34,003 bases of DNA. It comes from Candidatus Taenaricola geysiri (lineage in GTDB: Bacteria > Omnitrophota > Gorgyraeia > Taenaricolales > Taenaricolaceae). The position numbers and the translations under genes were made by a program. The stretch lies in assembly GCA_002781985.1 (NCBI GenBank), contig PFGP01000123.1, forward strand, positions 1-34,003, written 5' to 3'. Of the stretch, positions 7,393 through 34,003 are shown one piece after another. The first letter of the stretch is position 1; every line of letters begins with the position of its first letter. The notes under the pieces were generated by a model. It made no database searches, was not told the origin of the DNA, and was given only the letters and a program-made list of their open reading frames with translations.

Positions 7393-8773
7393 AAATCCTG
7401 ACATATTCGCGCTGTTTCTTCCTGAAATCAGGAGCCTACTGGCAGCCAAGGATTTTACAGGCTTAAAACAGGTGCTTAAAAATATTCGTTCTGTTGATAT
7501 TGCCTATGGATGGAGGCATCTTGAATCGCAGGATAAAATTTTTATTTTTAAGCTTTTCTCCGCCAAAAGGGCCGTGGAGGTTTTTGAAAGCCTGAATCTT
7601 AGCGAGCAGGAATATATACTGAACAACCTTGAAAATGCCGATGTCTCGCAGATTATAAACGAAATGGCGCCTGATGAAAGGGCAGACCTTTTTAAGGACC
7701 TGCCGCAGAAGGTTTCAAAAAAGCTGTTTAAATTTGTAAACAAGACAGAAGAACAGAATTTAAGGCAGCTTTTAAATTATGAAGAGGGCACAGCCGGCAG
7801 CTTGATGACAACAGACCTTGTTGAAATTAAAAAGGATATGTCGGCAAGGCAGGCGATAATTAGCCTTCAGGAGAACCTTCGCTCTGACTTTAACGAAAAC
7901 GTTTATTCTGTATTTGTGACGGATGAAAACCACAAGCTTCTGGGAAGTATTTCCCTGCAGGACCTTATAAAGGCCCCGCCTGATATATTGATCAAGGATG
8001 TAATGGTGAGCGTGGAACTTGTAAAAATAGATCCGAATACTCCGCAGGAAGAGGTTTCCACGACATTTAAAAAATATGACCTTTTTGACGCGCCGATCGT
8101 AAATAAGGATAATCTGCTCGTAGGTATAATTACGGTTGACGATATAATCGAGACAATAGAAAAACGCAGCACCAGGGATTTGTATGAAATAGGAAAAATG
8201 GATGCCAGAGGCGGCGAGATTATAAGCTATGCCACGGCAACCATGTTTGACCTTGTCAAGCGCCGCGCCGGATGGCTGATTTTGCTTCTTGTATTTGATT
8301 TTTTAACAGGCACTGTGCTTAAGAGCTTTCAAAATGTGTTAAGTTCCGTGGTGGCGCTGGCGTTTTTTATACCGATGCTTCTTGATACCGGAGGTAACGC
8401 GGGCGCTCAGGCGTCTATAACGATTATAAGAGGCCTTGCTACAGGAGATGTCAATTTCAAGAACGTACTTAAAGTTATAAAGCTTGAATTTGCGGCAGCG
8501 CTTTTGATGGGTGTAATTGTAGGTATTGTTGCCTTTGCAAGGGCGCTCTTGTTACAAAAAGATTTCTTTATTGCCGGCGTAGTAGGCATAAGCATGCTTT
8601 TTATCGCGATACTTGCTATAGCTACCGGCATTTTCCTGCCGCTTGCGTCAAAAAAGGTCGGGCTTGACCCTGCTGTGCTGGCAGGCCCGATTACCACCAG
8701 CATAGTCGATGTCGTGGGCCTTATAATATATTTTAAGATAGCCCAGCTTTTTATCCCAGCCCTTCAGTATTAA
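7373..8773 (+). CDS. mgtE: magnesium transporter MgtE
   Basis: The N-domain (ADLF..LP) is followed by a tandem CBS region. The membrane domain carries PMLLDTGGNAGAQAS. The gene overlaps the fba end by 20 nt. Confidence 0.9.
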   Translation: MKTAQRKNPDIFALFLPEIRSLLAAKDFTGLKQVLKNIRSVDIAYGWRHLESQDKIFIFKLFSAKRAVEVFESLNLSEQEYILNNLENADVSQIINEMAPDERADLFKDLPQKVSKKLFKFVNKTEEQNLRQLLNYEEGTAGSLMTTDLVEIKKDMSARQAIISLQENLRSDFNENVYSVFVTDENHKLLGSISLQDLIKAPPDILIKDVMVSVELVKIDPNTPQEEVSTTFKKYDLFDAPIVNKDNLLVGIITVDDIIETIEKRSTRDLYEIGKMDARGGEIISYATATMFDLVKRRAGWLILLLVFDFLTGTVLKSFQNVLSSVVALAFFIPMLLDTGGNAGAQASITIIRGLATGDVNFKNVLKVIKLEFAAALLMGVIVGIVAFARALLLQKDFFIAGVVGISMLFIAILAIATGIFLPLASKKVGLDPAVLAGPITTSIVDVVGLIIYFKIAQLFIPALQY

Positions 8774-10014
8774 ACTGTCCCTATATAACTTGTAAGTGTC
8801 CGGTGAGGATGCCAGGAGAGTTTGGCTTTTTTAAGATTGGCAAGGCCTGAATCGTCCATTGTGTTGATGTATTTTGCTTCTTTTGCGATATCCTGCGCAA
8901 GGTGGCTGAATATAAATTGGCTAAGGCCTTTTATGGTTGTATCAGCGGTTTCAAAGACGACGCAATACGTATCGGTATTCATTTCAAACGCGAACGTATA
9001 GGCGCGTATTTTTTCATCTATGTCAACAACCCTGCCTGTAAGCCCCAGTTCTTCATAATCAAGCATTGCCTTTTTATGGGCAGAGAAGCTATCAGCGATA
9101 AGTTGATGATATACGCTGTCGTGCGTCCCCATCTTTCTTTTAGCCCAGCTGCTATACAGGTTTAGGCATTCATCAATATCGCTTATTACAAAAGGTCTGT
9201 AAATAAATTTGTTGTTTTTTATGAAATTATTCTTTGCGGCGCGCTGCGAGGAGAATCTATTGCCTTTTAATTCCGCAATATCTTTGGCTAGGTATATATA
9301 CTCGTCTGTATTTTTGTGGATTTTTATTCCGGCGCCTTCAAACGCCTTAATTTCTTTCTCAGCGATATTTTCGATACGGCCTCCGGGTTTTAATAAATGC
9401 ATACCTTTAGGCGAGGAAATCAGCATGTTGAATTCATTTTTATATTCGTAAAATACGCACAGGTTATTGTCAATAATCTTCCATAATATGTTGAATAAAT
9501 CCGACCATATGTATATATTAACGAATGACCTCGCGGAATACTCTGAATTGTTCAGATATTTATTAAATAAGGGTTTGTGTTCAAGCGCGAGCGCTTTAAA
9601 CCCGCCCAGGTTTTTTATCGTTGTAATCTTTATCGTATCCGGCTGGTATGGCATTACGAAGCTGTGCGGCAGGCTGGTGTAGTTGAACTCAGGGTGGCCG
9701 GTTATCACTTTCGCATAAGGGCATTTGGCATCAAGGACAAGGACTATATTTTCGTATTCCTTGTTATATGTAACCATGAAGGGATAGAGCTGGCAGTCAA
9801 GCGGCCTGTGCGCGTATATATTGCAGGAATTTGATTCCGGAGAGAAATTTTGGCAGATAAATATGTCTTTGTGAGGTTTAAGCGATAACCGGCAAGTGCT
9901 ATCTGAAAAAGAATCGCTCAACAAAACCGGCGCATACCGGCTGTTTTGCTGAACGAACCTGCAACACGCATCACATTTTAAACAAATTTCATTCGGTACA
10001 AATTGTTTTAACAA
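8770..10014 (-). CDS. fusion protein: N-terminal YkgJ-type Cys-cluster domain (CxxCxxCC) + C-terminal DUF2156 (MprF C-terminal-like) domain
   Basis: The N-terminus shows CLKCDACCRF ... CNIYAHRPLDCQLYPF (YkgJ/UPF0153 pattern). From about residue 140 there are DUF2156-like motifs (SEYSARSFVNIYIW, KGNRFSSQRAAKNNF, YINTMDDSGLANLKKAKLSWHP). The only possible start is TTG at 10012-10014, directly after the in-frame TAA of the upstream gene. Confidence 0.7.
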   Translation of the reverse strand: MLKQFVPNEICLKCDACCRFVQQNSRYAPVLLSDSFSDSTCRLSLKPHKDIFICQNFSPESNSCNIYAHRPLDCQLYPFMVTYNKEYENIVLVLDAKCPYAKVITGHPEFNYTSLPHSFVMPYQPDTIKITTIKNLGGFKALALEHKPLFNKYLNNSEYSARSFVNIYIWSDLFNILWKIIDNNLCVFYEYKNEFNMLISSPKGMHLLKPGGRIENIAEKEIKAFEGAGIKIHKNTDEYIYLAKDIAELKGNRFSSQRAAKNNFIKNNKFIYRPFVISDIDECLNLYSSWAKRKMGTHDSVYHQLIADSFSAHKKAMLDYEELGLTGRVVDIDEKIRAYTFAFEMNTDTYCVVFETADTTIKGLSQFIFSHLAQDIAKEAKYINTMDDSGLANLKKAKLSWHPHRTLTSYIGTV

Positions 10015-15752: not shown

Positions 15753-16307
15753 ATGCTAAACTTAAAACAGAAAAAAAGGCTGCTTGGCATTGCCAGAAAA
15801 ACAATAGAAGAGTATCTTTCTACCGGCAGGAAGCCTGATTTTACAGAAACAGACGCTGATTTAATACAGGCCTGCGGCGCGTTTGTGACCTTGCATGAAA
15901 ATGGCGAACTTCGAGGGTGCATAGGAAATATTATATCTCAAAAAGCGCTTTATGAAACAATCATAGATATGGCAATAGCCGCCGTTGTTGCTGATCCGAG
16001 GTTCGCGCCGGTAAAAAAAGAAGAACTTAAAAATATTGAAATCGAAATATCAGTTTTATCGCCGCTGAAAAAGATTAGCGATATAAGCGAATTCCGGCTT
16101 GGCACGCATGGAGCGCTGGTGAGGAAAGGCTTAAATTCAGGCCTGTTTCTGCCGCAGGTTGCAACAGAAACCGGTTGGAATAAGGAAGAATTTTTATCAA
16201 ACCTGTGCGCGCATAAAGCCGGGCTTGCCAAAGATGCATGGAAAGATAAATCCTGCGAAATACATGTGTTTACTGCCGATGTATTTTCGGAAAAACAATC
16301 AAAATGA
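15753..16307 (+). CDS. AMMECR1-domain protein (AmmeMemoRadiSam system protein A-like)
   Basis: Core motif GAFVTLHENGELRGCIG, then ..DPRF.PV.. and ..GLFLPQV... Confidence 0.85.
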   Translation: MLNLKQKKRLLGIARKTIEEYLSTGRKPDFTETDADLIQACGAFVTLHENGELRGCIGNIISQKALYETIIDMAIAAVVADPRFAPVKKEELKNIEIEISVLSPLKKISDISEFRLGTHGALVRKGLNSGLFLPQVATETGWNKEEFLSNLCAHKAGLAKDAWKDKSCEIHVFTADVFSEKQSK

Positions 16308-16714
16308 AAAAGGTTTTTGTATTTTTAGTCGTCTTAAGCATAGCGGCAGTATCTTTTGCCGATAACTGCCCAATAGCTAAATTTTATAAGGTTGACAGCG
16401 GCATTTATCGCGGGGCCGCACCAGGTGAAAAGGGCATGCAGCATCTTAAAGACAAAGGTATCAAAGCCATAATAGACCTTAGAACCGGGAAGGCCTCTGT
16501 ACTGAAGGAAAAACGGCTTGCTGAGAAGTTAGCGATAAGATATATTAATATTCCGTTAAACCCTATTTATGGCCTGCCTGAACAAAAACAGGTTGAAATG
16601 TTTTTAAAAATAACCAAAGACCCAAAAAACAGGCCTGTTTTTATCCATTGCCATAACGGCGTGCACAGGACAGGCAGGATGGTAGCTGTTTACCTGAAGG
16701 ATGCTTTAGAATGA
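16304..16714 (+). CDS. exported small Cys-based phosphatase (CX5R, PFA-DSP/Siw14-like)
   Basis: Signal peptide MKKVFVFLVVLSIAAVSFA and P-loop HCHNGVHRTG. A 4-nt ATGA overlap links it to the upstream gene. Confidence 0.7.
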   Translation: MKKVFVFLVVLSIAAVSFADNCPIAKFYKVDSGIYRGAAPGEKGMQHLKDKGIKAIIDLRTGKASVLKEKRLAEKLAIRYINIPLNPIYGLPEQKQVEMFLKITKDPKNRPVFIHCHNGVHRTGRMVAVYLKDALE

Positions 16715-17310
16715 ATCGTAAAGATTTATTGTCGGCATATAAAAAAAGAAAAAAAGAAATAAAACAACGCCTGGCGCAGTTTAACCGCGTCCGCAAACTT
16801 GGTAACAAGAGGTTGTTTAAGGAATTGTGTTTTTGTATATGCACCCCGCAATCAAAGGCAGTTAATTGCGATAAGGCGATACAACAGCTTGTTAAGGCAA
16901 AAGCGTTGTATAATGCCGTGCCTGAGGATATAGCTAGATATCTTAAAGGTTTGGTACGTTTTCATAATAACAAGGCGAAATATATAGTCCGGGCCAGGAA
17001 AATATTTTTTGACAGGCCTGAATTGAACCGCAAATGGCTTGTTAAAAATATCAAGGGCCTGGGGCTTAAAGAGGCCAGTCATTTTTTAAGAAACATAGGC
17101 CTTGGAAGTGACTTGGCTATAATAGATAGACATGTATTGACAAATCTCAGCAGGTGTGGTGTAATAAAAAGGATACCTGAAAGCATTTCAGCCAAACAAT
17201 ACCTTATAATTGAAGATAAAATGCGCAGGTTTTCCAAAGATATAGGCATTCCTATGGTAGAGCTTGATTTATTATTTTGGTCCGAAGAAACAGGGCATAT
17301 TTTTAAATAA
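16711..17310 (+). CDS. ogg: archaeal-type 8-oxoguanine DNA glycosylase / N-glycosylase-DNA lyase (Ogg2-like, HhH-GPD)
   Basis: HhH element GLGLKEASHFLRNIG followed by IIDRHVL. Size is about 200 aa, typical of this subgroup. Confidence 0.7.
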   Translation: MNRKDLLSAYKKRKKEIKQRLAQFNRVRKLGNKRLFKELCFCICTPQSKAVNCDKAIQQLVKAKALYNAVPEDIARYLKGLVRFHNNKAKYIVRARKIFFDRPELNRKWLVKNIKGLGLKEASHFLRNIGLGSDLAIIDRHVLTNLSRCGVIKRIPESISAKQYLIIEDKMRRFSKDIGIPMVELDLLFWSEETGHIFK

Positions 17311-22489: not shown

Positions 22490-23191
22490 ATGGAAAATAT
22501 AAATTTTCAAGAAAATATAAAAGCGCTGTCTAAAATAAGCAAGGCAATAGCCTCAGATTTATATCTTGAGGATATTTTGCGTCTTATAGTCAGCGTTACG
22601 GCAGAGGTAATGGGTTCTAATATATGTTCTCTAATACTTGTAGATGAAGCAAAACAGGAGCTGGTTATTAGGGCTACACAAAGCATTAGTGAAGAGTATA
22701 ACAAGAAAAAGCCTCTTAAGATAGGCGAAGGCATTGCGGGAAAAGCTATTGAGCAAAATAGGCCTATTGTGGTAAAAGACGTAACAAAGGAAGCCGAGTA
22801 TAAGCATAAAGATATAGCGAAAAAAGAAGGCCTCAAATCGCTTTTATGTGTTCCGCTGGTGGTAAAAAACAAGGTTATAGGCGCAATAAACTGCTATACA
22901 AACAAGGCCCACAATTTTAGCGATACGGAAATCAACATCCTCACTTCAATAGCTAGCCAGGCGGCTGTTGCCATAGAGAACACAGAGTTGTTGGTAAAGA
23001 CAAAAATAATAAGAGAGGAACTCGAGGCGCGTAAAAAAGTAGAGCGCGCAAAAGGTATTTTAATGAAAGAGGAAGGTATGGCAGAGGACCAGGCTTACCT
23101 GAAGCTTCAGAAATACAGTATGGACATGCGAAAGAGCATGCGCGAAGTCGCAGAAGCTATTATTCTGGCCCACGAATTTAAGAAACAATAA
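22490..23191 (+). CDS. GAF + ANTAR domain RNA-binding antitermination regulator
   Basis: N-terminal GAF domain (..ICSLILVDE..ELVIRA.., GEGIAGKAIE, AINCY). C-terminal ANTAR region (RKKVERAKGILMKEEGMAEDQAYLKLQKYSMDMRKSMREVAEAII). No SD precedes the ATG. Confidence 0.85.
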   Translation: MENINFQENIKALSKISKAIASDLYLEDILRLIVSVTAEVMGSNICSLILVDEAKQELVIRATQSISEEYNKKKPLKIGEGIAGKAIEQNRPIVVKDVTKEAEYKHKDIAKKEGLKSLLCVPLVVKNKVIGAINCYTNKAHNFSDTEINILTSIASQAAVAIENTELLVKTKIIREELEARKKVERAKGILMKEEGMAEDQAYLKLQKYSMDMRKSMREVAEAIILAHEFKKQ

Positions 23192-23209: not shown

Positions 23210-24793
23210 ATGAATCTGTTAAAGCCTAATAGCAACGACGCTACAGGGACTTTTAATCGTTCGAAAAACGTAGTACCGTGTTCAGGTTTGTGTTCAAAGT
23301 GTCTTGAGTCATGCAGGGGCAATTGCGAGATTTTCAAATCTTCATTTAGAGGCAGAGAGGTTATATATCCGGGGCCGTTTGGAGAGATGACAGCCGGCGG
23401 CGATAAAAATTATCCGATAGATTATTCTCATCTTAATATACAGGGCTATGCCCAGGGCGCAAAAGGCCTGGAAAAAGGTATAGAGGGCAATCCTGACACA
23501 GCTACATTTCCCGATGTGGATACCCAGATAGAATACGGCTGGGATAAAAAGGTAAAGATGCAGGTACCGATTTTTACCGGCGCCTTAGGATCGACGGAAA
23601 TCGCGCGTAAACATTGGGAATCTTTTGCTATAGGCGCCGCGATATCAGGCATTACACTTGTGTGCGGGGAAAATGTTTGCGGTATTGACCCGAAACTTGA
23701 GCTGGATTTCAAAGGCAAAATTACCAAGGCGCCTGACATGGACAGGCGTATTGAGGCGTATAAAAAGTTTCATAATGGTTTCGGCGAAATACTTGTTCAG
23801 ATGAACGTCGAAGATACCAGGCTTGGCGTCGCGGAGTATGTAAGAAAAAAACACAGTTTGGAAACTATAGAGTTGAAATGGGGCCAGGGCGCAAAGTGTA
23901 TAGGCGGTGAGATAAAAGTAAAAAGTATTGAAAGGGCGCAGGAGCTTAAAAAGCGCGGCTATATTGTTACGCCTGACCCGACAGTTCATGCAACACAGGA
24001 AGCGTTTAAAGACAAGGCGATAAAGGAATTTGAAAGGCATTCGCGGCTTGGTTTTGTCTCCGAGGAAAGCTTTATGAAAGAGATAAAGCGCTTAAGAGAC
24101 CTCGGGTTTAAGAGAATAACCTTAAAGACAGGCGCTTATTCAATGGTTGAGCTTGCGCAGGCGATTAAATTTTCGTCAATGGCGAATATAGATTTATTGA
24201 CAATTGACGGCGCGCCCGGCGGCACAGGGATGAGCCCGTGGCGCATGATGCAGGAATGGGGCATACCGACATTTTATCTGGAAGCGCTTATGTATGAATT
24301 TTGTGAGAAATTGGCAAAAAAGAAAATGAGAATTCCTGATATTGCGATGGCAGGCGGATTTTCCCTGGAGGATCACGTTTTTAAGGCCATAGCAATGGGC
24401 GCGCCTTATGTAAAAGCGGTTTGCATGGGAAGGGCGTTAATGATACCCGGTTTTGTCGGTAAGAATATAGAGGAATGGATTAAAACCAATACATTGCCGT
24501 CTACCGTATCCGAATTCGGCAAGACCGCCAAAGAGATATTCGTTTCTTATGAAGAGCTTGCGGATAAATACGGCAAGGACATGAAAGATATTCCTTTGGG
24601 CGCTGTCGGGGTTTATACATTCAGCCAGAGAATAAGAGTTGGTTTGCAGCAATTGATGGCAGGCTCCAGAAATTTTAAGGTAAACACCATTTCAAGAAAA
24701 GACCTGATGAGCCTGACAGAAGATGCGGCAAAGGTGTCAGGTATCGCTTATGTAATGGATGCCTACAGAAAAGAGGCCGAAGCGGTTCTTTAA
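23210..24793 (+). CDS. glutamate synthase-related FMN/Fe-S domain protein (GltB central domain only) with N-terminal Cys cluster
   Basis: Motifs IDGAPGGTGMSPW and AMAGGFSLEDHVFKAIAMGA. The N-terminal cluster reads CSGLCSKCLESCRGNC. No Ntn-amidotransferase or GXGXG domain is present. Confidence 0.8.
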   Translation: MNLLKPNSNDATGTFNRSKNVVPCSGLCSKCLESCRGNCEIFKSSFRGREVIYPGPFGEMTAGGDKNYPIDYSHLNIQGYAQGAKGLEKGIEGNPDTATFPDVDTQIEYGWDKKVKMQVPIFTGALGSTEIARKHWESFAIGAAISGITLVCGENVCGIDPKLELDFKGKITKAPDMDRRIEAYKKFHNGFGEILVQMNVEDTRLGVAEYVRKKHSLETIELKWGQGAKCIGGEIKVKSIERAQELKKRGYIVTPDPTVHATQEAFKDKAIKEFERHSRLGFVSEESFMKEIKRLRDLGFKRITLKTGAYSMVELAQAIKFSSMANIDLLTIDGAPGGTGMSPWRMMQEWGIPTFYLEALMYEFCEKLAKKKMRIPDIAMAGGFSLEDHVFKAIAMGAPYVKAVCMGRALMIPGFVGKNIEEWIKTNTLPSTVSEFGKTAKEIFVSYEELADKYGKDMKDIPLGAVGVYTFSQRIRVGLQQLMAGSRNFKVNTISRKDLMSLTEDAAKVSGIAYVMDAYRKEAEAVL

Positions 24794-24839
24794 GTCCCTC
24801 GTCACTGCTCGAGATAGCGGGTGACTCGGGACGAATTTT
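24794..24839 (+). terminator. possible intrinsic terminator after the gltB-like gene
   Basis: Imperfect hairpin GTCCCtcGTCAC...GTGACtcGGGAC (24794-24832) with TTTT at 24836-24839. The U-tract is weak and there is an internal 2x2 mismatch. Confidence 0.35.
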
Positions 24840-24904
24840 GCCGAACACGGCATCCCGTGAACGGGACAGCCAAAAAGATTCTACCGGAAAATTCGGAGGT
24901 GGTT

Positions 24905-25051
24905 ATGAGCGGTAAAGGATTATGCGTTACTTGTGTGAAAGACAAAGATTGCACCTTTACAAAAAGATACCCTGTTGTATACTGCGAAGAATTTAATTTT
25001 GAGCAGAAAAAGCATTTTTCTGCCAAAAAGGCTTGCAAGAGAAAAAGTTGA
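24905..25051 (+). CDS. 48-aa Cys-rich basic-tailed hypothetical protein
   Basis: The ATG at 24905 lies 5 nt after GGAGG (24895-24899). Sequence: MSGKGLCVTCVKDKDCTFTKRYPVVYCEEFNFEQKKHFSAKKACKRKS (CxxC-x5-C-x10-C plus one more Cys). The track ORF from 24821 starts at GTG inside a hairpin. Confidence 0.5.
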   Translation: MSGKGLCVTCVKDKDCTFTKRYPVVYCEEFNFEQKKHFSAKKACKRKS

Positions 25052-25075
25052 CATATTTTGAAATCGTGGTATACT
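25048..25075 (+). promoter_or_regulatory. sigma70-type promoter with extended -10 (TTGACA-16-TGgTATACT)
   Basis: TTGACA at 25048-25053 overlaps the small ORF stop. TG at 25067-25068, TATACT at 25070-25075. Confidence 0.55.
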
Positions 25076-25111
25076 AATAGATAGTCCAAAGAAGAACTGC
25101 TAGATCAAAAC

Positions 25112-25155
25112 AATGGCGTTTAGAGGCTGAATTGCCGGCCCTAAACGCCATTTTT
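25112..25155 (+). terminator. leader terminator/attenuator hairpin L2 upstream of pyrG
   Basis: Perfect 12-bp stem AATGGCGTTTAG/CTAAACGCCATT with an inner GGC..GCC helix. It runs into TTTTT (25151-25155). The pyrG SD GAGGAG lies 25 nt further on. Confidence 0.6.
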
Positions 25156-25160
25156 AATGA

Positions 25161-26812
<1,652 letters not shown>

Positions 26813-26813
<1 letters not shown>

Positions 26814-27922
26814 TGAATGCGATATTAGCGTTAGAAGACGGAAAAATATTCAGAGGCAGGTCTTTTGGAGCAGGCGGCGAAAGATACGGGGAGGTTGTGT
26901 TTAATACCAGTATGACTGGTTATCAGGAGATACTAACCGACCCATCTTATAAAGGCCAAATAGTTACAATGACTTATCCTTTGATAGGAAACTATGGGGT
27001 AAATAAAGAGGACGTAGAATCGCATAAGCCTTTTGTCGAGGGATTTGTTGTTAAGGAATACAGCAAGATCGCAAGTAATTGGCATTCGCAGCAGTCTCTG
27101 GGCGATTATCTTAAGGAAAATAACATACTCGGCATAGAAGGTATTGATACTCGGCAGCTGACCTTGCATATAAGGCTTGTAGGCGCGATGAAAGCGGTTC
27201 TGTCAACAATTGATTTAGATGAAAAGGCCCTTGTTAAAAAAGCGAAGAATTCAAAGGGGCTGGTAGGCATTGACCTGGTTAAAGAGGTTACCTGTAAAAA
27301 GCCGTATGAATGGAAAACCAAGGCCGCCCCGGGTACGGTCTTTGGTAAAAGGGTGGTGGTGGTTGACTGCGGGGTTAAATTTAATATATTGCGCAATTTG
27401 CAAAGAGTAGGTTGTCAGGTTATGGTTGTCCCGGCAACGACAACTGCAAATGATATTTTAAAAATAAAACCGGACGGGGTTTTGTTTTCAAACGGCCCTG
27501 GCGACCCATCCGCGGTTTCGTATGTTATAGAGACAACCAGCCGGCTGATAGGTAAGCTTCCGGTATTCGGCATATGCCTTGGCCAGCAGATGCTTGGCCT
27601 TGCTTTTGGCGGGAAGACATATAAGCTTAAATTTGGGCATCATGGCGGCAATCAACCGGTAAAAGATTTAAAAACAGGAAAGGCCTTTATATCGGTGCAA
27701 AACCACGGATTTTGTGTGGACATGGATTCGCTTGATAAAAAAGATATAGAGATAACGCATATAAATTTAAATGATAAGACGCTTGAGGGTTTACGGCATA
27801 AAAAACTGCCTATATTTTCCGTGCAGTTTCATCCGGAGGCCTCGCCTGGCCCGCATGACGCGCAATATTTGTTTAAAAGATTTGTGGAGATGATGGAGAA
27901 ACACCGTGCCAAAAAGAACTGA
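26813..27922 (+). CDS. carA: carbamoyl-phosphate synthase small (glutaminase) subunit, catalytic triad intact
   Basis: Motifs [24 protein letters not shown] (nucleophile Cys) and [13 protein letters not shown] (His/Glu). The start overlaps the pyrG stop (TAATG). Confidence 0.9.
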
Positions 27923-29537
27923 TATCAAAAAGATTTTAATAATCGGTTCCGGCCCAATAGTAATAGGCCAGGCATGCGAATTTGATTATTCAGGTTCCCA
28001 GGCGTGTAAGATCCTGCGCCAGGAGGGCTTTAAGGTTGTGCTTGTCAATTCAAACCCTGCTACTATAATGACAGACCCTGATATTGCTGACAGGACTTAT
28101 ATAGAGCCAATAACAACAGAGGTCATAGAGAAGATTATTGAAAGAGAAAGGCCATGCGCCTTGCTTGCCACACTGGGTGGCCAGACCGCGTTAAACGCGG
28201 CAGTTGACCTGGATAAAAAAGGTATACTTAAGAAATACAAGGTGGAGGTAATAGGCGCCAATATCGCCGCTATAAAAAAAGGCGAGGACAGGTGTTTATT
28301 CAAACTGGCTATGGAGAAGATAGGCCTTGATTTGCCAAAAAGCGACAAGGCGTATAATCAGAAAGAGGCAGCAGATGTTGTTCAGAAGATAGGTTTTCCG
28401 GTTATTATACGCCCGAGTTTTACTTTAGGCGGCGCAGGCGGCAGCATTGCATATAATATGGAAGAATTTAAAGAGCTTGCCAAACGCGGCTTGGAGTCCA
28501 GCATGATAAGCGAGATCCTTATAGAGGAATCGGTTGCAGGCTGGAAAGAATTTGAGCTTGAGGTGATGCGCGACAAAAAGGATAACGTTGTAATTATCTG
28601 CTCAATAGAAAATTTTGATCCAATGGGTATCCATACAGGCGACTCTATTACAGTCGCGCCTATACAGACATTGACTGACAGGCAATACCAAAAGATGCGA
28701 GATGCGGCCATTGCGTGTATACGCGAAATAGGCGTTGAGACAGGGGGGTCTAATATACAGTTTGCGGTTGACCCGAAAAACGGCCGCATGGTTGTTATTG
28801 AAATGAACCCAAGGGTTTCAAGGAGTTCTGCTTTGGCGTCAAAGGCAACGGGTTTTCCTATAGCAAAGATCGCGGCAAAGCTTGCCGTCGGATACACACT
28901 GGATGAAATCTCAAACGATATAACAAAAGAAACGCCCGCGTGTTTTGAGCCGTCGATAGATTACTGCGTGGTCAAAATACCGCGCTTTACATTCGAGAAA
29001 TTTAAGGCGTCAAATTCAACTTTAACTGTATCAATGAAATCGGTAGGCGAGGCGATGTCCATAGGCAGGACTTTTAAAGAGGCGCTGCAAAAAGGCCTGC
29101 GTTCGCTTGAGATAAAAAAATCAGGGCTTGAGTCCCTCAGGATAAAGGATATAGAGCTTATTTACGAAAAATTAAGAACGCCGAATGCCGAGCGCATATT
29201 TTTTATAGCCGATGCAATAAGGTTTGGGATGAGCCTTGAAGAAATAAACAAAATGACTTCAATAGACCCGTGGTTTTTATATAATATTAAGGAGATAATA
29301 GATACTGAGAAAGAGATAATAAAGAATAAAAGTAGTATTACCAAAGAGCTTTTGACAAAAGCAAAGGAATATGGTTTCAGCGATAAGCAGCTGGGTGGGC
29401 TTTTGGGCAAATCCGAAGAAGAGGCCTATAAACTGCGCAAATCCATGAATATCGCCCCAAATTTTAAGCTGGTTGATACTTGCGCTGCGGAGTTTCGCGC
29501 CTTCACCCCGTATTATTACTCCACATACGATAGTTAA
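27906..29537 (+). CDS. carB: carbamoyl-phosphate synthase large subunit, N-terminal half only (split CarB)
   Basis: The GTG start lies 6 nt after GGAGA. N-terminus [36 protein letters not shown]-grasp motifs ([36 protein letters not shown]) and an oligomerisation region are present. The ORF ends ..[11 protein letters not shown]-stop after 543 aa. Confidence 0.9.
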
Positions 29538-29544
29538 TTTTGTA

Positions 29545-29572
29545 TTGACAGTTTTCCAGATAGTGGTATAAT
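29545..29572 (+). promoter_or_regulatory. consensus sigma70 promoter with extended -10 (TTGACA-16-TGgTATAAT)
   Basis: TTGACA at 29545-29550, TG at 29564-29565, TATAAT at 29567-29572. Confidence 0.6.
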
Positions 29573-29581
29573 GTGTTAAAC

Positions 29582-29627
29582 AACGGCGTTTGAGTGTTGG
29601 ATTGTCAGCACTAAAAGCGCCGTTTTT
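29582..29627 (+). terminator. leader terminator/attenuator hairpin L3 upstream of the DUF1846 gene
   Basis: AACGGCGTTTGAGTG...CACTAAAAgCGCCGTT forms about 15 bp with one bulge and one mismatch. It runs into TTTTT (29623-29627). The hairpin begins about 3 nt after the predicted transcription start. Confidence 0.55.
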
Positions 29628-29646
29628 CTAAAACCAATACCCTCCA

Positions 29647-31170
29647 ATGAAAAAAAATGGCTTCGATAACGAGAAATATCTAAAAGAACAAACCGCCGCG
29701 ATATTAGGCAGGGTTGCCGAATTCGGCAACAAGCTTTATCTTGAATTCGGCGGAAAGCTCTGCTTTGATTATCATGCCGCGCGCGTCCTTCCGGGATATG
29801 ACCCCAACGTAAAAATAAGGCTACTTCAAAAATTAAAAGATAAAATAGAGATAGTTTTATGTATCTATTCCGGAGATATTGAAAAAGGCAGGGTCAGGGG
29901 CGATTTCGGAATAACATATGACGCTGCCACATTTAAATTGATTGACGACCTGAGGAAATGGGGGCTTGATATATCATCGGTTGTTATTACCAGGTTTACG
30001 AATCAATCAGCGGCAGTTACATTCAAGAACAAATTAGAGCGCAGGGGCGTAAAGGTATACCTGCATTATCCTATAAAAAATTATCCCACAAATATAGATT
30101 TAGTCGCAAGCGATAAGGGTTTTGGAAAGAACGATTATATAAAAACCAAAAAACCCATTGTGATAATAACCGGGCCAGGGCCTAACAGCGGCAAGCTCGC
30201 CACATGTTTATCGCAATTGTACCAGGAGCATAAAAAGGGGATAAACGCCGGTTATGCGAAATTTGAGACGTTTCCTATCTGGAATATTCCGTTGAAACAT
30301 CCTGTTAATGTCGCCTATGAGGCGGCAACCGCGGACATACAGGATTTTAACCTGGTTGATCCGCATCATTTTAAAAAATATAAAAAGAAAGTGATTAATT
30401 ATAATCGCGACGTCGAAAGCTTTCCGATATTAAAATCAATACTTGCTAAAATATGTGACGGTAAAAAAACCATGCCCGTGTATAATTCACCTACTGATAT
30501 GGGTGTAAACCGGGCCGGTTTTGGCATAGTAAACGACAAAATAGTTCAAGAGGCAGCCAAGCAGGAGTTGATAAGGAGGTATTTCAGGTATAATGCCGAA
30601 TACCTTCTTGGTATAGAAAAGAAAGAGACGGTTCAGCGCGCAATGGATTTGATGAAAGAGTTGGGTGTGGACGTTACTGACAGGCCCGTAGTCAATGTTG
30701 CCAGAAAAGCGTCAGAAGATGCCGAAAAGAAAGGCAAGGGCTTCGCCGGTATTTATTGCGGCGCGGCGCTTGAGTTAAAAAATGGGAAGATTGTAACAGG
30801 CAAGAATTCGAAGTTGATGCATGCGGCGTCAAGCCTTGTGATAAATGCGGTTAAAGTGTTGGCAAAGATACCGGATGAAATATTGCTTTTATCGCCGCAG
30901 ATAATAAGGCAGATATCAGTATTAAAGGAAAGCATTTTGGGTTTGGAGCCGGAGAGTCTGGATTTGGAGGAGGCCCTGATAGCCCTTTCAATAAGCGCGA
31001 CTACGAATCACACAGCCGAGATAGCGATGAAGAAATTGGCGGAGTTGCGCGGTTGCCAGATGCACATAACTCATATATCTACCCCGGGCGATGAGGTAGG
31101 ATTAAAGATGCTGGGCGTAAATGTGACAACAGACGGTAAGTTTTCTTCAAATAATTTGTTTGTTACGTAG
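29647..31170 (+). CDS. DUF1846 / UPF0371 family protein (function unknown)
   Basis: Colinear with the recalled Firmicutes UPF0371 pattern. Shared motifs: FD.EKYL, KLYLEFGGK, HAARVLPGY, LHYPIK.YPT, GPGP.SGKLATC, GYAKFETFPIWN.PL.HPVN.AYEAATAD, NYNRD.E.FP.LK, SPTDMGVN. No SD is present; CCCTCC precedes the ATG. Confidence 0.85.
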   Translation: MKKNGFDNEKYLKEQTAAILGRVAEFGNKLYLEFGGKLCFDYHAARVLPGYDPNVKIRLLQKLKDKIEIVLCIYSGDIEKGRVRGDFGITYDAATFKLIDDLRKWGLDISSVVITRFTNQSAAVTFKNKLERRGVKVYLHYPIKNYPTNIDLVASDKGFGKNDYIKTKKPIVIITGPGPNSGKLATCLSQLYQEHKKGINAGYAKFETFPIWNIPLKHPVNVAYEAATADIQDFNLVDPHHFKKYKKKVINYNRDVESFPILKSILAKICDGKKTMPVYNSPTDMGVNRAGFGIVNDKIVQEAAKQELIRRYFRYNAEYLLGIEKKETVQRAMDLMKELGVDVTDRPVVNVARKASEDAEKKGKGFAGIYCGAALELKNGKIVTGKNSKLMHAASSLVINAVKVLAKIPDEILLLSPQIIRQISVLKESILGLEPESLDLEEALIALSISATTNHTAEIAMKKLAELRGCQMHITHISTPGDEVGLKMLGVNVTTDGKFSSNNLFVT

Positions 31171-31180
31171 AGGGAGAGCT

Positions 31181-32284
31181 ATGAAAGCGATACTGGTGCT
31201 TGAAAACGGAAGTGTATATGAAGGCACCGCCTGCGGCGCTGCCGGCGAGAGGGTTGGAGACGTCATTATCAATACGGCTGTCGTTGGTTATCAGGAGATG
31301 GTTACAGATGCAGCCAATGCCGGAAAGATAATTGTTTTGACATATCCTTTGATAGGAAATTACGGCGTAGCGAAAAAATTCAGTGAATCAAGCAAATGTC
31401 AGGCTGCCGGATTGGTTATAAAAGAGATGTCAAGGATGTATTCTAATTGGCAGGCAGAAGGGCCTTTTGGTGAATTTTTGAAAAAAGAAAACGCTGTTGC
31501 GATAAGCGGCATTGACACAAGGACGCTCTCGGTTGAAATAAGAGATAAAGGCGAGCAGCCAGGCATAATATCAACTAAGGATTTTAATAAAGAATCGCTG
31601 CTTAAAAAAATAAAGAATCATAAAAAAGAAGGTTTTATAAAAGATACATCAGTAAAAAAACCGGTAGAATTTAAGGCAGGCGTTTTGAAATACAATATCG
31701 GTGTTGTGGATTTGGGCATGCCGAGGAGTTTTATCAGGCAGCTAAATACTCTTGGCTGCAATGTGATATTATTGCCTTATGATACGCCAAGCGCCAAGAT
31801 AATGGCGTTGAATTTAAACGGCCTAATTGTATCAAGCGGGCCTGAAAATGATCCGGCTATCCCGGATATCGCGGAAAATGTAAAAAATCTTTTAGGAAAG
31901 ATGCCTATTATGGGTATTTCAACAGGGCATCATGTTTTGGGGCTTGCTCTCGGCGGTAAACTGAAGAAGATGAAGATTGGGCATCACGGCGTGAATTATC
32001 CTATAAAAGCACTTGATTCATTTAAGGGCGATATCACTGCCCAGAATCATTCATACGTTCTGGATGAGGCAGGCATAAAGAATAGAAAAGACGTAAATAT
32101 AACGTTGCGGAATATAAATGACGATTCAATAGAGGAAATGGAAAGCAAGCCCCTGAAGTTTTTATCAGCGCAATATTGCCCTGCGAGCCCAGGATTTAAT
32201 GAGGTAAACGAGGCGTTTGAAAGATTTCTTAACATGACAAAATCAAACAAGGCTACAAAAGGGGTGCAACATGCCAAAGCGTAA
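31181..32284 (+). CDS. CarA paralogue with degenerate glutaminase active site (pseudo-glutaminase small subunit)
   Basis: The ATG at 31181 follows AGGGAGAG. The N-terminal half is conserved ([10 protein letters not shown] identical to CarA1). However GICLG is replaced by GISTG and FHPEASPG by YCP-ASPG. Confidence 0.85.
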
Positions 32285-34003
32285 AGACATAAAAAGGATT
32301 TTAATGATAGGTTCCGGCCCTATAGTTATAGGCCAGGCATGTGAATTTGATTATTCCGGTTCTCAGGCGTGTAAGGCGTTAAGAGAAGAGGGTTATTTTA
32401 CAATACTCGTCAATTCAAACCCGGCTACTATAATGACAGATCCTAATATGGCCGATGTTACGTATATAGAGCCGCTTAATATAGAAACTGTTATAGAAAT
32501 AATAAAAAAGGAAAAGCCCGACGCTATATTGCCTACTTTGGGCGGCCAGACAGGATTAAATTTGGCGTTTTTTCTTATGAAGCAGGGTATTTTGAAAAAA
32601 TACGGGATTGAATCAATAGGCGCGGATGTTGATGCCATCTCGCGCGCCGAGGACAGGGAATTGTTTAAAAAGGCGATGCTTGAGATAGGCGTAAGCATGC
32701 CGAAAAGCGGTATTGCCCACAGTGTTGAAGAGGGGATGAAGATTGGGCTTAAGATCGGGTTTCCTCTTATATTAAGGCCTGCGTATACGCTTGGCGGAAG
32801 CGGTGGTTCAATCGCGTATAATAAGGAAGAGTTGGAGATATTTTTGGCAAAAGGCCTTGAGATAAGTCCTGTAGCCCAGATTCTGGTAGAGCAATCTGTC
32901 CTTGGGTGGAAAGAGATAGAGTTTGAGGTAATGAGGGATTGCGTGGACAATGTCATTATGATCACGTCCATGGAAAATGTTGACCCTATGGGCGTGCACA
33001 CCGGCGACAGTATTGTTGTGGCGCCTTCTCAGACTTTGACGAAAGAGGAATACTCTAATTTTGTAAATCTTTCTAAAAAAATCATAAGAAAAATAGGTAT
33101 AACAGGCGGCGGCGCGAACATACAGTTTGCGCAGAATCCGGATAACGGTGAAATAGTAATTATAGAGGTAAATCCGCGTCTTTCAAGGAGTTCTGCTTTG
33201 GCGTCAAAGGCAACAGGCTTTCCTATTGCGCGCGTTGCAACAAAGCTTGCGGTAGGCCTTACTTTGCCTGAGGTATTAAATCAGGTAACAGGAAAGACAA
33301 CCGCGTTTTTTGAGCCCACAGTCGATTACTGTGTATTTAAAATATGCAGGTTCACGTTTGAAAAATTCCCAGGGACAAAAAGGATATTGAATACATCAAT
33401 GAAGGCGGTCGGGGAAGCTATGTCAATAGGAAGGAATTTCCGCGAGGCATTGCAGAAAGGCATCAGGTCCATAGAGACAAAAAGGTTTGGCTTAGGCGCT
33501 GACGGTAAGGATAAGATAACAGACGATATGCTTAAAAATCCGTCGCCGGAGATTACAGGCGAAATAAAGGATATGATACGCAAGCCCAATGACGGCAGGT
33601 TTTTTTATTTAAGGTATGCGATAAAAATAGGATTGACTACGGATGAGATATACGAGTTGTCTAAGATAGACAGGTGGTTTATTGACAACCTGAGGCAGAT
33701 TGTGGAAACAGAGGATGAGATAAAAAAATACAGGAATAAAAATATAGACGATGAAATAAATATGCCAAAAGAGATGTTTGTCAGGGCAAAGACGCACGGT
33801 TTTTCCGATGTGCAGCTGGCAGTGCTTTTAAATTCAAGGGAGAAGAATGTGAGGCAGGCAAGAAAAAAATTAAATATAAAGCCGGCGTATAAATTGGTTG
33901 ACACCTGCGCAGGCGAGTTTAAGGCAGAGAAGCCTTATTATTATTCCACTTACGAGACAAAGAATGAAAGCGCGCCGTCTTCTGATAAGAAAAAGGTGCT
34001 TAT
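32271..34003 (+). CDS. carB: carbamoyl-phosphate synthase large subunit, second copy, 3' end beyond window
   Basis: This ORF is not in the supplied ORF track because it has no stop in the window. I translated it by hand from ATG 32271 (AAGGGG upstream) and the frame stays open to 34003. It begins [33 protein letters not shown] and reads through the half-molecule junction (..[24 protein letters not shown]..). Confidence 0.9.

Follow-up and report, generated by a model that had tools for sequence, protein, structure and literature searches.

Textbooks name glutamine as the nitrogen donor of nucleotide synthesis and present a carbamoyl phosphate synthetase (CPS) specific for ammonia as a speciality of the vertebrate liver. 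In the human enzyme, CPS1, a Ser replaces the catalytic Cys, and Gln318, which lies at the position of Gly293 in E. coli CarA, blocks the ancestral ammonia tunnel (PMC4655335). Split and minimal forms of CPS are known from Aquifex aeolicus and from Methanobrevibacter smithii, whose CPS is 41 kDa; isolated CPS halves and the 41-kDa archaeal mini-CPS catalyse the whole reaction as dimers (reviewed in PMC6022934). At the last step of the pyrimidine pathway, the S. pneumoniae gene spd_0310 is synthetic-lethal with pyrG, a defect that cytidine rescues, and the purified Spd_0310 protein alone converts uridine triphosphate (UTP) to cytidine triphosphate (CTP) with ammonia and not with glutamine; it has been renamed PyrJ, and about 31% of the genomes with pyrJ have no pyrG (bioRxiv 10.1101/2024.09.24.614635). 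Here we analyse a 34,003-nucleotide stretch of DNA from Candidatus Taenaricola geysiri (contig PFGP01000123.1, assembly GCA_002781985.1), which we call the window, and ask how such systems compare with a locus at its end, where a gene for a DUF1846 (UPF0371) protein, the family of PyrJ, stands directly before a carA paralogue and a carB gene.

The last 9 kb of the window hold six co-directional genes, all on the + strand: pyrG, carA, carB(N), the DUF1846 gene, carA*, and carB'. We use CarA* for the CarA paralogue encoded at 31181-32284, CarB' for the second CarB, which begins at 32271, and CarB(N) for a CarB that consists of the N-terminal half only; loci outside the window carry numbers with the letter L. 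The DUF1846 open reading frame spans 29647-31170 (507 residues) and ends in a TAG stop codon at 31168-31170, exactly as an earlier note on this DNA had read it. After a gap of 10 nucleotides follows the carA* ATG at 31181, preceded by the Shine-Dalgarno sequence GAGGGAGAG (31170-31178, read from the sequence). The carA* gene encodes 367 residues, and its end at 32284 overlaps by 14 nucleotides with carB', whose ATG lies at 32271. The first 577 residues of CarB' lie inside the window (32271-34003, from its open reading frame and domains); the complete protein, 1094 residues, is encoded at 12625-15909 of L001, contigs that encode an identical DUF1846 protein. On these contigs, carB' is followed by a gene for a 127-residue protein and then by glutamine synthetase and gltB. 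The promoter and leader that the earlier note placed ahead of three tightly linked genes were confirmed, as were the start of carA* and the overlap with carB', and the three genes form a real, conserved module, with DUF1846 present in all ten CarA* loci that we sampled. Judging from their spacing, we infer that the three genes are co-transcribed. The sequencing runs that contain this stretch are DNA from groundwater or aquifer metagenomes, and no RNA run matched; an early idea of an ammonium-rich digester habitat was dropped. The closest named relatives of all these proteins are from Candidatus Omnitrophota.

We think it probable, with the reservations weighed below, that pyrJ and carA*-carB' encode two separate ammonia-using pyrimidine enzymes that sit beside an operon for their glutamine-using counterparts. 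PyrJ would make CTP from UTP, adenosine triphosphate (ATP), and NH3, the last step of the pathway, and CarB' would carry out the first step, the synthesis of carbamoyl phosphate, using bicarbonate, two ATP, and free NH3. CarA* would not split glutamine; like the dead domain of CPS1, it would serve the structure of the enzyme and possibly the intake of ammonia. The upstream pyrG-carA-carB(N) genes would provide the glutamine-type counterparts of both steps, and each operon, with its own promoter and terminator-type leader, may be read by a neighbouring GAF-ANTAR protein. Each kind of enzyme is already known; the novelty would lie in finding PyrJ and a CPS-I-like bacterial CPS in one operon.

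The first half of this reading depends on the identity of the DUF1846 protein. Both of its Pfam domains match over their full length (PF08903, E = 3.6e-158, residues 5-339; PF20921, E = 7.7e-52, residues 345-505), and it scores 724.6 bits against the NCBIfam equivalog NF010184 (curated cut-off 631), a model that still carries the name 'hypothetical protein'. It aligns along its full length with PDB 7F00, the structure of SPD_0310/PyrJ, at 49% identity over 491 residues (E = 2.4e-149), and is 47% identical to 3BH1. The structure prediction and Foldseek search that the earlier note had proposed give the same answer: the AlphaFold2 (AF2) model, with a predicted local distance difference test (pLDDT) score of 91, has template-modelling (TM) scores of 0.86-0.94 to 7F00 and 3BH1, the Foldseek match to 7F00 has E = 1e-56 and TM scores of 0.86/0.92, and the full-chain search returns nothing significant beyond these two structures. 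The cytidine-deaminase-like fold that the PyrJ preprint describes for the C-terminal domain (bioRxiv 10.1101/2024.09.24.614635) was not independently confirmed by Foldseek here. Family members share about 50% identity across phyla and about 80% within Omnitrophota. By sequence and predicted fold, the window protein is a PyrJ ortholog and, with the activity carried over from the S. pneumoniae preprint, a probable ammonia-dependent CTP synthase. The view in the earlier note that DUF1846 has no assigned function is therefore out of date, and the first functional context that it hoped to give the family has been superseded by the 2024 preprint.

The same structural match invites another explanation, in which the DUF1846 protein here is a hemin-binding protein of iron homeostasis and its place next to car genes is fortuitous. 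SPD_0310 (PDB 7F00) is tetrameric and binds hemin with high affinity, as a 2022 paper reported (PMC9238395), and the window protein is predicted to share its fold. Against this, no haem or iron genes accompany DUF1846 in about 97 loci, where the neighbours are instead pyrG, carB, purF-like genes, gdhA, and glnA, and the genetics and enzymology of PyrJ explain why the gene is essential in species without pyrG (bioRxiv 10.1101/2024.09.24.614635). We find a hemin role for the gene at this locus scarcely credible.

The second half of the reading depends on CarA*. This protein has both domains of a CPS small subunit (PF00988, CPSase_sm_chain, E = 1.5e-42; PF00117, GATase, E = 7.1e-28), and compared with E. 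coli CarA it has Cys269 changed to Ser, His353 changed to Tyr or Cys, and Glu355 lost or replaced. A complete C269-H353-E355 triad is likewise missing from all of its 120 nearest homologues, which are 58-71% identical to it and come mostly from Omnitrophota, with one from Ratteibacteria. Position 269 varies across the clade among Ser, Ala, Gly, and Val, and roughly one sequence in four has one of the last three; given this variation and the absence of the His and Glu, we rejected Ser269 as a replacement nucleophile. To judge by these residues, CarA* cannot hydrolyse glutamine by the canonical mechanism, and to this extent the claim of the earlier note that the paralogue is a dead glutaminase is supported. 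The loss makes an alternative nitrogen source, free ammonia, a reasonable theme.

Other changes are shared by the whole CarA* clade, including G243E, Q273E, G313S, P360F, and H361D/N. At the position of G293, 99 of the 121 clade sequences have Val and 16 have Ser, and the old ammonia tunnel of CarA* appears to be plugged. The clade has also gained conserved residues of its own (GPE-N-D and QY-x-P-x-SPGF). The GATase-like domain of CarA* is 63-66% identical between distant genomes, whose canonical CarA proteins reach 74-75%; this degree of conservation argues that the domain is under selection and not decaying. From these features, together with the analogy to CPS I, CarA*-CarB' is a candidate user of ammonia.

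CarA* scores 332 bits on TIGR01368, just above the cut-off of 307, so that annotation pipelines label a protein with no triad as 'glutamine-hydrolyzing'; its named database relatives do carry the label of a 'glutamine-hydrolyzing' CPS small subunit. A literature search on triad-less bacterial CarA or on ammonia-dependent CPS in Omnitrophota found nothing relevant.

The large subunit looks catalytically competent. CarB' scores 1630 bits on NF003671 (cut-off 599) and has two ATP-grasp halves, the oligomerisation domain, and the MGS-like allosteric domain. In its N-terminal half, 19 of the 20 residues that contact ATP, metal, or K+ are identical to those in E. coli, the exception being E208Q. Its clade-specific substitutions fall at the gate of the tunnel (C232T) and at the interface between the subunits (M264F, R265V, and A267L).

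The glutamine-type counterparts are encoded directly upstream. The pyrG gene (25191-26813) has the domains of a glutamine-dependent CTP synthase and motifs that read as an intact GATase site (GLCLGMQ, FHPE), and the canonical carA (26813-27922), with 528 bits on TIGR01368, keeps its triad (GICLGQQ, FHPE). The product of carB(N) (27906-29537), 543 residues, has the pre-ATP-grasp, ATP-grasp (carboxyphosphate), and oligomerisation domains by Pfam and aligns with residues 1-548 of E. coli CarB. Stand-alone CarB(N) proteins of 543-554 residues follow an intact carA in several Omnitrophota; besides the window, we found them at 2573-4231 in L012, 4732-6396 in L091, 3704-5368 in L092, and 4501-6165 in L093. 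There is no separate gene for a CarB C-half (CPS.B) near CarB(N), the only C-half at the window locus being that of CarB'. Given that isolated CPS halves and the 41-kDa archaeal CPS perform the full reaction, CarA-CarB(N) could be a dimeric mini-CPS without an allosteric domain. One of these loci is labelled at odds with its content: L012 (CAYGZJ010000008.1) is named 'uncultured Planctomycetales', its pyrG, carA, carB(N), and DUF1846 are 76-81% identical to those of the window, and its DUF1846 falls inside the Omnitrophota clade, so a mistaken taxonomic label or a binning error is probable.

In a tree of N-halves, CarB(N) groups among the canonical ones, and the N-halves of CarB' form a separate clade on a long branch. 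CarB(N) is 61% identical to E. coli CarB, 72% to the intact CarB of L073, and 56% to the N-half of CarB', and the C-half of CarB' is 77.5% identical to that of L073. This pattern fits a duplication of carA and of the N-half of carB, in which the copy that stayed joined to the C-half co-evolved with a dying glutaminase. L073 (8440-14293) is the only locus found in which an intact carA (GICFGQQ, FHPE) and then a complete carB come after DUF1846. The N-half of this carB resembles CarB(N) and its C-half resembles CarB', at the identities just given; the locus represents either the ancestral state or a recombination product of two carB paralogues.

These relationships could also mean that the two sets of subunits form a mixed complex, where CarA-CarB(N) hydrolyses glutamine and makes carbamate and CarB' adds the C-half, for the phosphorylation of carbamate, together with the allosteric domain. 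In favour of this, CarB(N) lacks a C-half, keeps the oligomerisation domain, and groups with canonical N-halves; CarB' has a long-branch N-half and yet a C-half close to that of its canonical relative; and the window and L091-L093 contain both sets. A mixed complex would leave the N-half of CarB' as a spare part, however, and that half keeps its catalytic residues. Each set also occurs without the other nearby: L007, L009, and L094-L097 have CarA*-CarB' without CarA-CarB(N) within 10 kb, and L011-L014 have CarB(N) upstream of DUF1846 with no CarA*-CarB' downstream. Finally, isolated CPS halves and the mini-CPS can catalyse the entire reaction as dimers (PMC6022934). We therefore consider a mixed complex improbable.

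To see how tightly DUF1846 is linked to car genes, we compared ten distinct loci centred on CarA* (the window, L007, L009, and L091-L097; L091-L093 are close relatives, so the independent CarA* lineages are nearer seven). DUF1846 lies in the same co-directional cluster in 10/10 and directly upstream of CarA* in 8/10 (the window, L009, and L091-L096). In the other two, L007 and L097, the order is CarA*-CarB'-PurF-like-GlmS-DUF1846, with a HisF-like gene after the PurF-like gene in L097. In L091-L093, carB(N) and DUF1846 are separated by three small genes (229, 247, and 124 codons; 6418-8243 in L091) that match neither Pfam nor NCBIfam and that the window does not have.

We also counted neighbours within 10 kb of 80 DUF1846 loci from many phyla, taking one genome per species. 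Car genes occur near DUF1846 in 7 of the 9 Omnitrophota-type loci, compared to 2 of the 71 others (Fisher p = 4e-7). The association that the earlier note proposed to look for thus exists within Omnitrophota and fails outside; it is strong but belongs to one lineage and is no property of the family as a whole. An unbiased clustering of the neighbours of all 80 loci found no universal partner: the most recurrent are a generic family of 254 residues, pyrG, CarB halves, and a PurF family with Ser in place of Cys1 (Ser-PurF, below), and gdhA and glnA recur as well. The pyrG gene adjoins DUF1846 in 5/80 loci from several phyla. In the window, L009, and L095, gdhA is found on the upstream side of DUF1846, and these loci also have an Nfn/GltD-like pair.

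In 12 cases, DUF1846 directly precedes a CPS gene: 8 times CarA*, once an intact CarA (L073), and 3 times a carB without any CarA (L047, 235-4973; L074, 9260-14024; L027, 548-2844). On the question, raised earlier, of whether neighbouring CarA copies also lack the triad, the answer is yes for the eight and no for L073. The three lineages without CarA are from Omnitrophota, Victivallales, and a metagenome-assembled genome (MAG) labelled Pseudomonadota. The CarB proteins of L047 and L074 form a long-branch clade of their own, with R265Q and A267Y/W, but their DUF1846 proteins are not sisters; a transfer of DUF1846 and CarB as a unit would fit the grouping of the CarBs and not that of the DUF1846 proteins.

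These counts bear on the proposal of the earlier note that DUF1846 works physically with CarA*-CarB', either supplying or channelling a nitrogen donor through the dead CarA or regulating or consuming its carbamoyl phosphate. The tight adjacency of DUF1846 and CarA* in 8 loci, with the 10-nucleotide gap in the window, would suit a physical partnership, and the new clade-conserved residues of CarA* could form a new interface. In contrast, PyrJ is a self-sufficient catalyst in vitro (bioRxiv 10.1101/2024.09.24.614635), and 69 of the 71 DUF1846 loci outside Omnitrophota have no car neighbours at all. The gene order varies, with two or three other genes between CarB and DUF1846 in L007 and L097; L027, L047, and L074 have no CarA to dock on; the CarA of L073 is intact; and DUF1846 has not diverged specially in genomes with CarA*, at about 80% identity across the phylum. 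The proposal is not supported, and we hold direct cooperation of this kind to be very improbable.

A nitrogen theme also appears in a neighbour other than CPS. A PurF-like protein of about 470 residues starts with MSGIFG, which puts a Ser at the position of the N-terminal nucleophile (Ntn) Cys1. This Ser-PurF adjoins DUF1846 in 7 loci, 5 of the 80 in the scan plus L007 and L097, at 14649-16055 in L007, 3149-4190 in L016, 11121-12103 in L019, 2400-3857 (- strand) in L025, 11636-13147 (- strand) in L038, about 7721-9124 (- strand) in L049, and 7542-8945 in L097. The genomes are from Omnitrophota, Ratteibacteria, Elusimicrobia, Pirellulales, and Vicinamibacterales. Among its 120 nearest homologues, which are 74-97% identical and come from several phyla, 112 start with MSG[IV][FY]G, and all 120 are annotated 'amidophosphoribosyltransferase'; on TIGR01134 the protein scores 207 bits, against a cut-off of 350.

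A further protein of the window, 527 residues long (23210-24793), has only the flavin mononucleotide (FMN) core of glutamate synthase (PF01645) and no NCBIfam match. It recurs with 55-68% identity in a Syntrophorhabdus MAG and an Actinomycetota MAG (L023, 12327-13889; L060, 17892-19475), 7-8 kb from DUF1846.

Each of the two operons in the window has a promoter and a leader of its own. The pyrJ operon promoter at 29545-29572 (+ strand; TTGACA, 16 nucleotides, and a TG-extended TATAAT) is the only 12/12 match to the sigma-70 consensus in 24500-34003; it starts 8 nucleotides past the carB(N) stop codon, inside the 109-nucleotide gap upstream of DUF1846. It leads into a leader (29580-29629, + strand) in which folding and a motif count show a terminator-like hairpin (29582-29624) with a T-run behind it; the 12-mer ACAACGGCGTTT forms the 5' arm of the hairpin. 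The hairpin has a free energy of -23.9 kcal/mol (z = -4.4), and none of 200 shuffled sequences is equally stable. The upstream glutamine-using operon likewise has a promoter and a terminator-type leader (25048-25190, + strand; promoter scan, folding, and motif search) with the same 12-mer, ACAATGGCGTTT. The exact 12-mer ACAAYGGCGTTT occurs three times in the window, always within the 5' arm of a terminator hairpin, in the leaders of an ANTAR gene, pyrG, and pyrJ; allowing one mismatch, there are 6 matches in the window compared to 0.41 expected by chance. No stronger promoter or terminator match lies inside DUF1846, carA*, or the part of carB' within the window.

Given that the two leaders share this 12-nucleotide motif, both operons probably belong to one nitrogen- or nucleotide-related regulon. 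The arrangement suggests that one trans-acting antiterminator reads the shared leaders, and the obvious candidate is the GAF-ANTAR regulator encoded at 22490-23191 (+ strand; Pfam labels), whose own leader has the 12-mer as well. Other loci with a GAF-ANTAR gene in the vicinity of DUF1846 are L007, L097, L013, L019, and L021. The 12-mer itself is absent from the other Omnitrophota loci and is therefore a species-level feature. A search of the whole window against Rfam at gathering thresholds gave no match, and folds of the leaders show no clear ANTAR dual hexaloop, a site of two tandem hexaloop hairpins of which the second overlaps the 5' arm of a terminator; the pyrJ leader has nearly no sequence before its hairpin. 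We rejected attenuation by reiterative transcription, as at B. subtilis pyrG, because neither leader has the GGGC start or the CU-rich terminator arm.

Several other details of transcription and translation starts were seen. The pyrJ gene has no Shine-Dalgarno sequence, its ATG being preceded by CCCTCC in an A-rich stretch (29630-29650). In several relatives (L013, L094, and L011), the DUF1846 ATG comes only about 10-25 nucleotides after a -10-like box, a distance that points to 5' untranslated regions that are very short or missing. Past the end of the window, L001 has two further 12/12 consensus promoters after carB' (15933-15961 and 16381-16790). One serves the gene for the 127-residue protein, which is rich in Gly, Ala, and Pro and has a signal-like N-terminus; the other has a leader of about 380 nucleotides with two terminator-like hairpins, before a 502-residue glutamine synthetase and gltB.

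Several of our observations weigh against two dedicated ammonia enzymes. The dead CarA shows that glutamine use was lost, not that a specialised ammonia enzyme was gained, because E. coli CarAB also accepts NH3. The same leader motif on both operons speaks for joint regulation of the two and against a glutamine/ammonia switch. Canonical purF, guaA, and purL-purQ follow CarB' in six loci (L091-L096), so that the wider cluster mixes glutamine-using with ammonia-type enzymes. L073 couples DUF1846 to an intact CarA-CarB, and membership in one pathway could therefore explain the linkage by itself. Lastly, the biochemistry of PyrJ comes from a single preprint, and the 2022 paper gives the same protein a hemin-binding role.

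The third and fourth of these points belong to a broader alternative, that the linkage reflects shared pathway or co-regulation only: Omnitrophota would have a super-operon of the nucleotide steps that add nitrogen, and the dead CarA would be unconnected with ammonia use by PyrJ. The array pyrG-carA-carBN...DUF1846-carA*-carB'-purF-guaA-purSL-purQ found among L091-L096, whose purF (MKEYCGVVG) and guaA are canonical, is what this would predict, as is the pairing of DUF1846 with an intact CarA in L073, and so is the presence of PyrG next to DUF1846 in 5/80 loci from several phyla. On the other hand, of the 12 CPS genes that directly follow DUF1846, 11 belong to a CPS with no working glutaminase partner, and a PurF-like gene without its Cys recurs beside DUF1846 in at least four phyla. 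Both patterns would be unexpected if the nitrogen donor were irrelevant. We judge the linkage unlikely to be a matter of shared pathway only, while granting this alternative a real chance.

We therefore continue to favour two separate ammonia-using enzymes. A wider model can be built on them, which we offer tentatively, as somewhat short of an even bet. Omnitrophota and some neighbouring uncultured lineages would have a dedicated nucleotide route based on free ammonia, parallel to the glutamine route, made up of PyrJ, a CPS whose CarA has been rebuilt for ammonia intake or dropped, and, in sister lineages, Ser-PurF. The ammonia pair here would go back to a duplicated carA and carB N-half, with antitermination of the GAF-ANTAR type acting on both operons at the shared motif. 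If this is true, entire stretches of a pathway can be converted to run on free ammonia, and using ammonia directly would save the ATP that is spent on making glutamine. In the window, both steps are present in a glutamine-type and an ammonia-type version, side by side, which makes the idea directly testable. The locus also exposes a systematic annotation error, in that CarA* passes the 'glutamine-hydrolyzing' cut-off and PyrJ is still a 'hypothetical protein'.

How does the locus compare with described systems? Like CarA-CarB of E. coli (CPS II; PDB 1JDB, 1C30), CarA*-CarB' has two subunits from translationally coupled genes; CarB' keeps all domains, including the MGS-like one, and the ATP and metal residues, and CarA* keeps both domains of CarA. 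The differences are Ser, Ala, or Gly at position 269 of CarA*, Tyr or Asn at 353, and the deletion of 355, together with G243E, Q273E, G313S, and usually Val at G293, and C232T and R265V in CarB'. With vertebrate CPS I (human CPS1; PDB 5DOU), it shares a retained but inactive glutaminase-like domain, a Ser for the catalytic Cys, a bulky residue at the Gly293 position, and, as predicted from its residues, free ammonia as the expected nitrogen source. In contrast to the separate subunit genes here, CPS1 is one fused polypeptide that needs N-acetylglutamate; it also retains the triad-region His and Glu, though their context is another one. The CarA* clade arose independently of CPS I; at most, CarA*-CarB' works like CPS I, and because its subunits are encoded by separate genes it is not a member of that class.

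The upstream set resembles CPS.A/CPS.B/GLN of Aquifex aeolicus in that CarB(N) is a CPS.A-type half beside an active CarA, and differs in that there is no separate CPS.B gene nearby (PMC6022934). In its regulation, the locus is like B. subtilis pyrG attenuation and ANTAR antitermination in running a strong promoter into an intrinsic terminator, here ahead of both pyrG and pyrJ, and like ANTAR systems in having a GAF-ANTAR gene within the island, with the same leader motif; unlike B. subtilis pyrG, the leaders have no GGGC start, no pyrimidine-rich arm, and no Rfam match. Finally, the window protein shares with S. pneumoniae PyrJ the two Pfam domains, 49% identity over the full length, the predicted fold, and the presence of a pyrG in the genome as well. 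The pneumococcal gene is not reported in an operon with car genes, whereas pyrJ of Omnitrophota heads or joins a CPS cluster.

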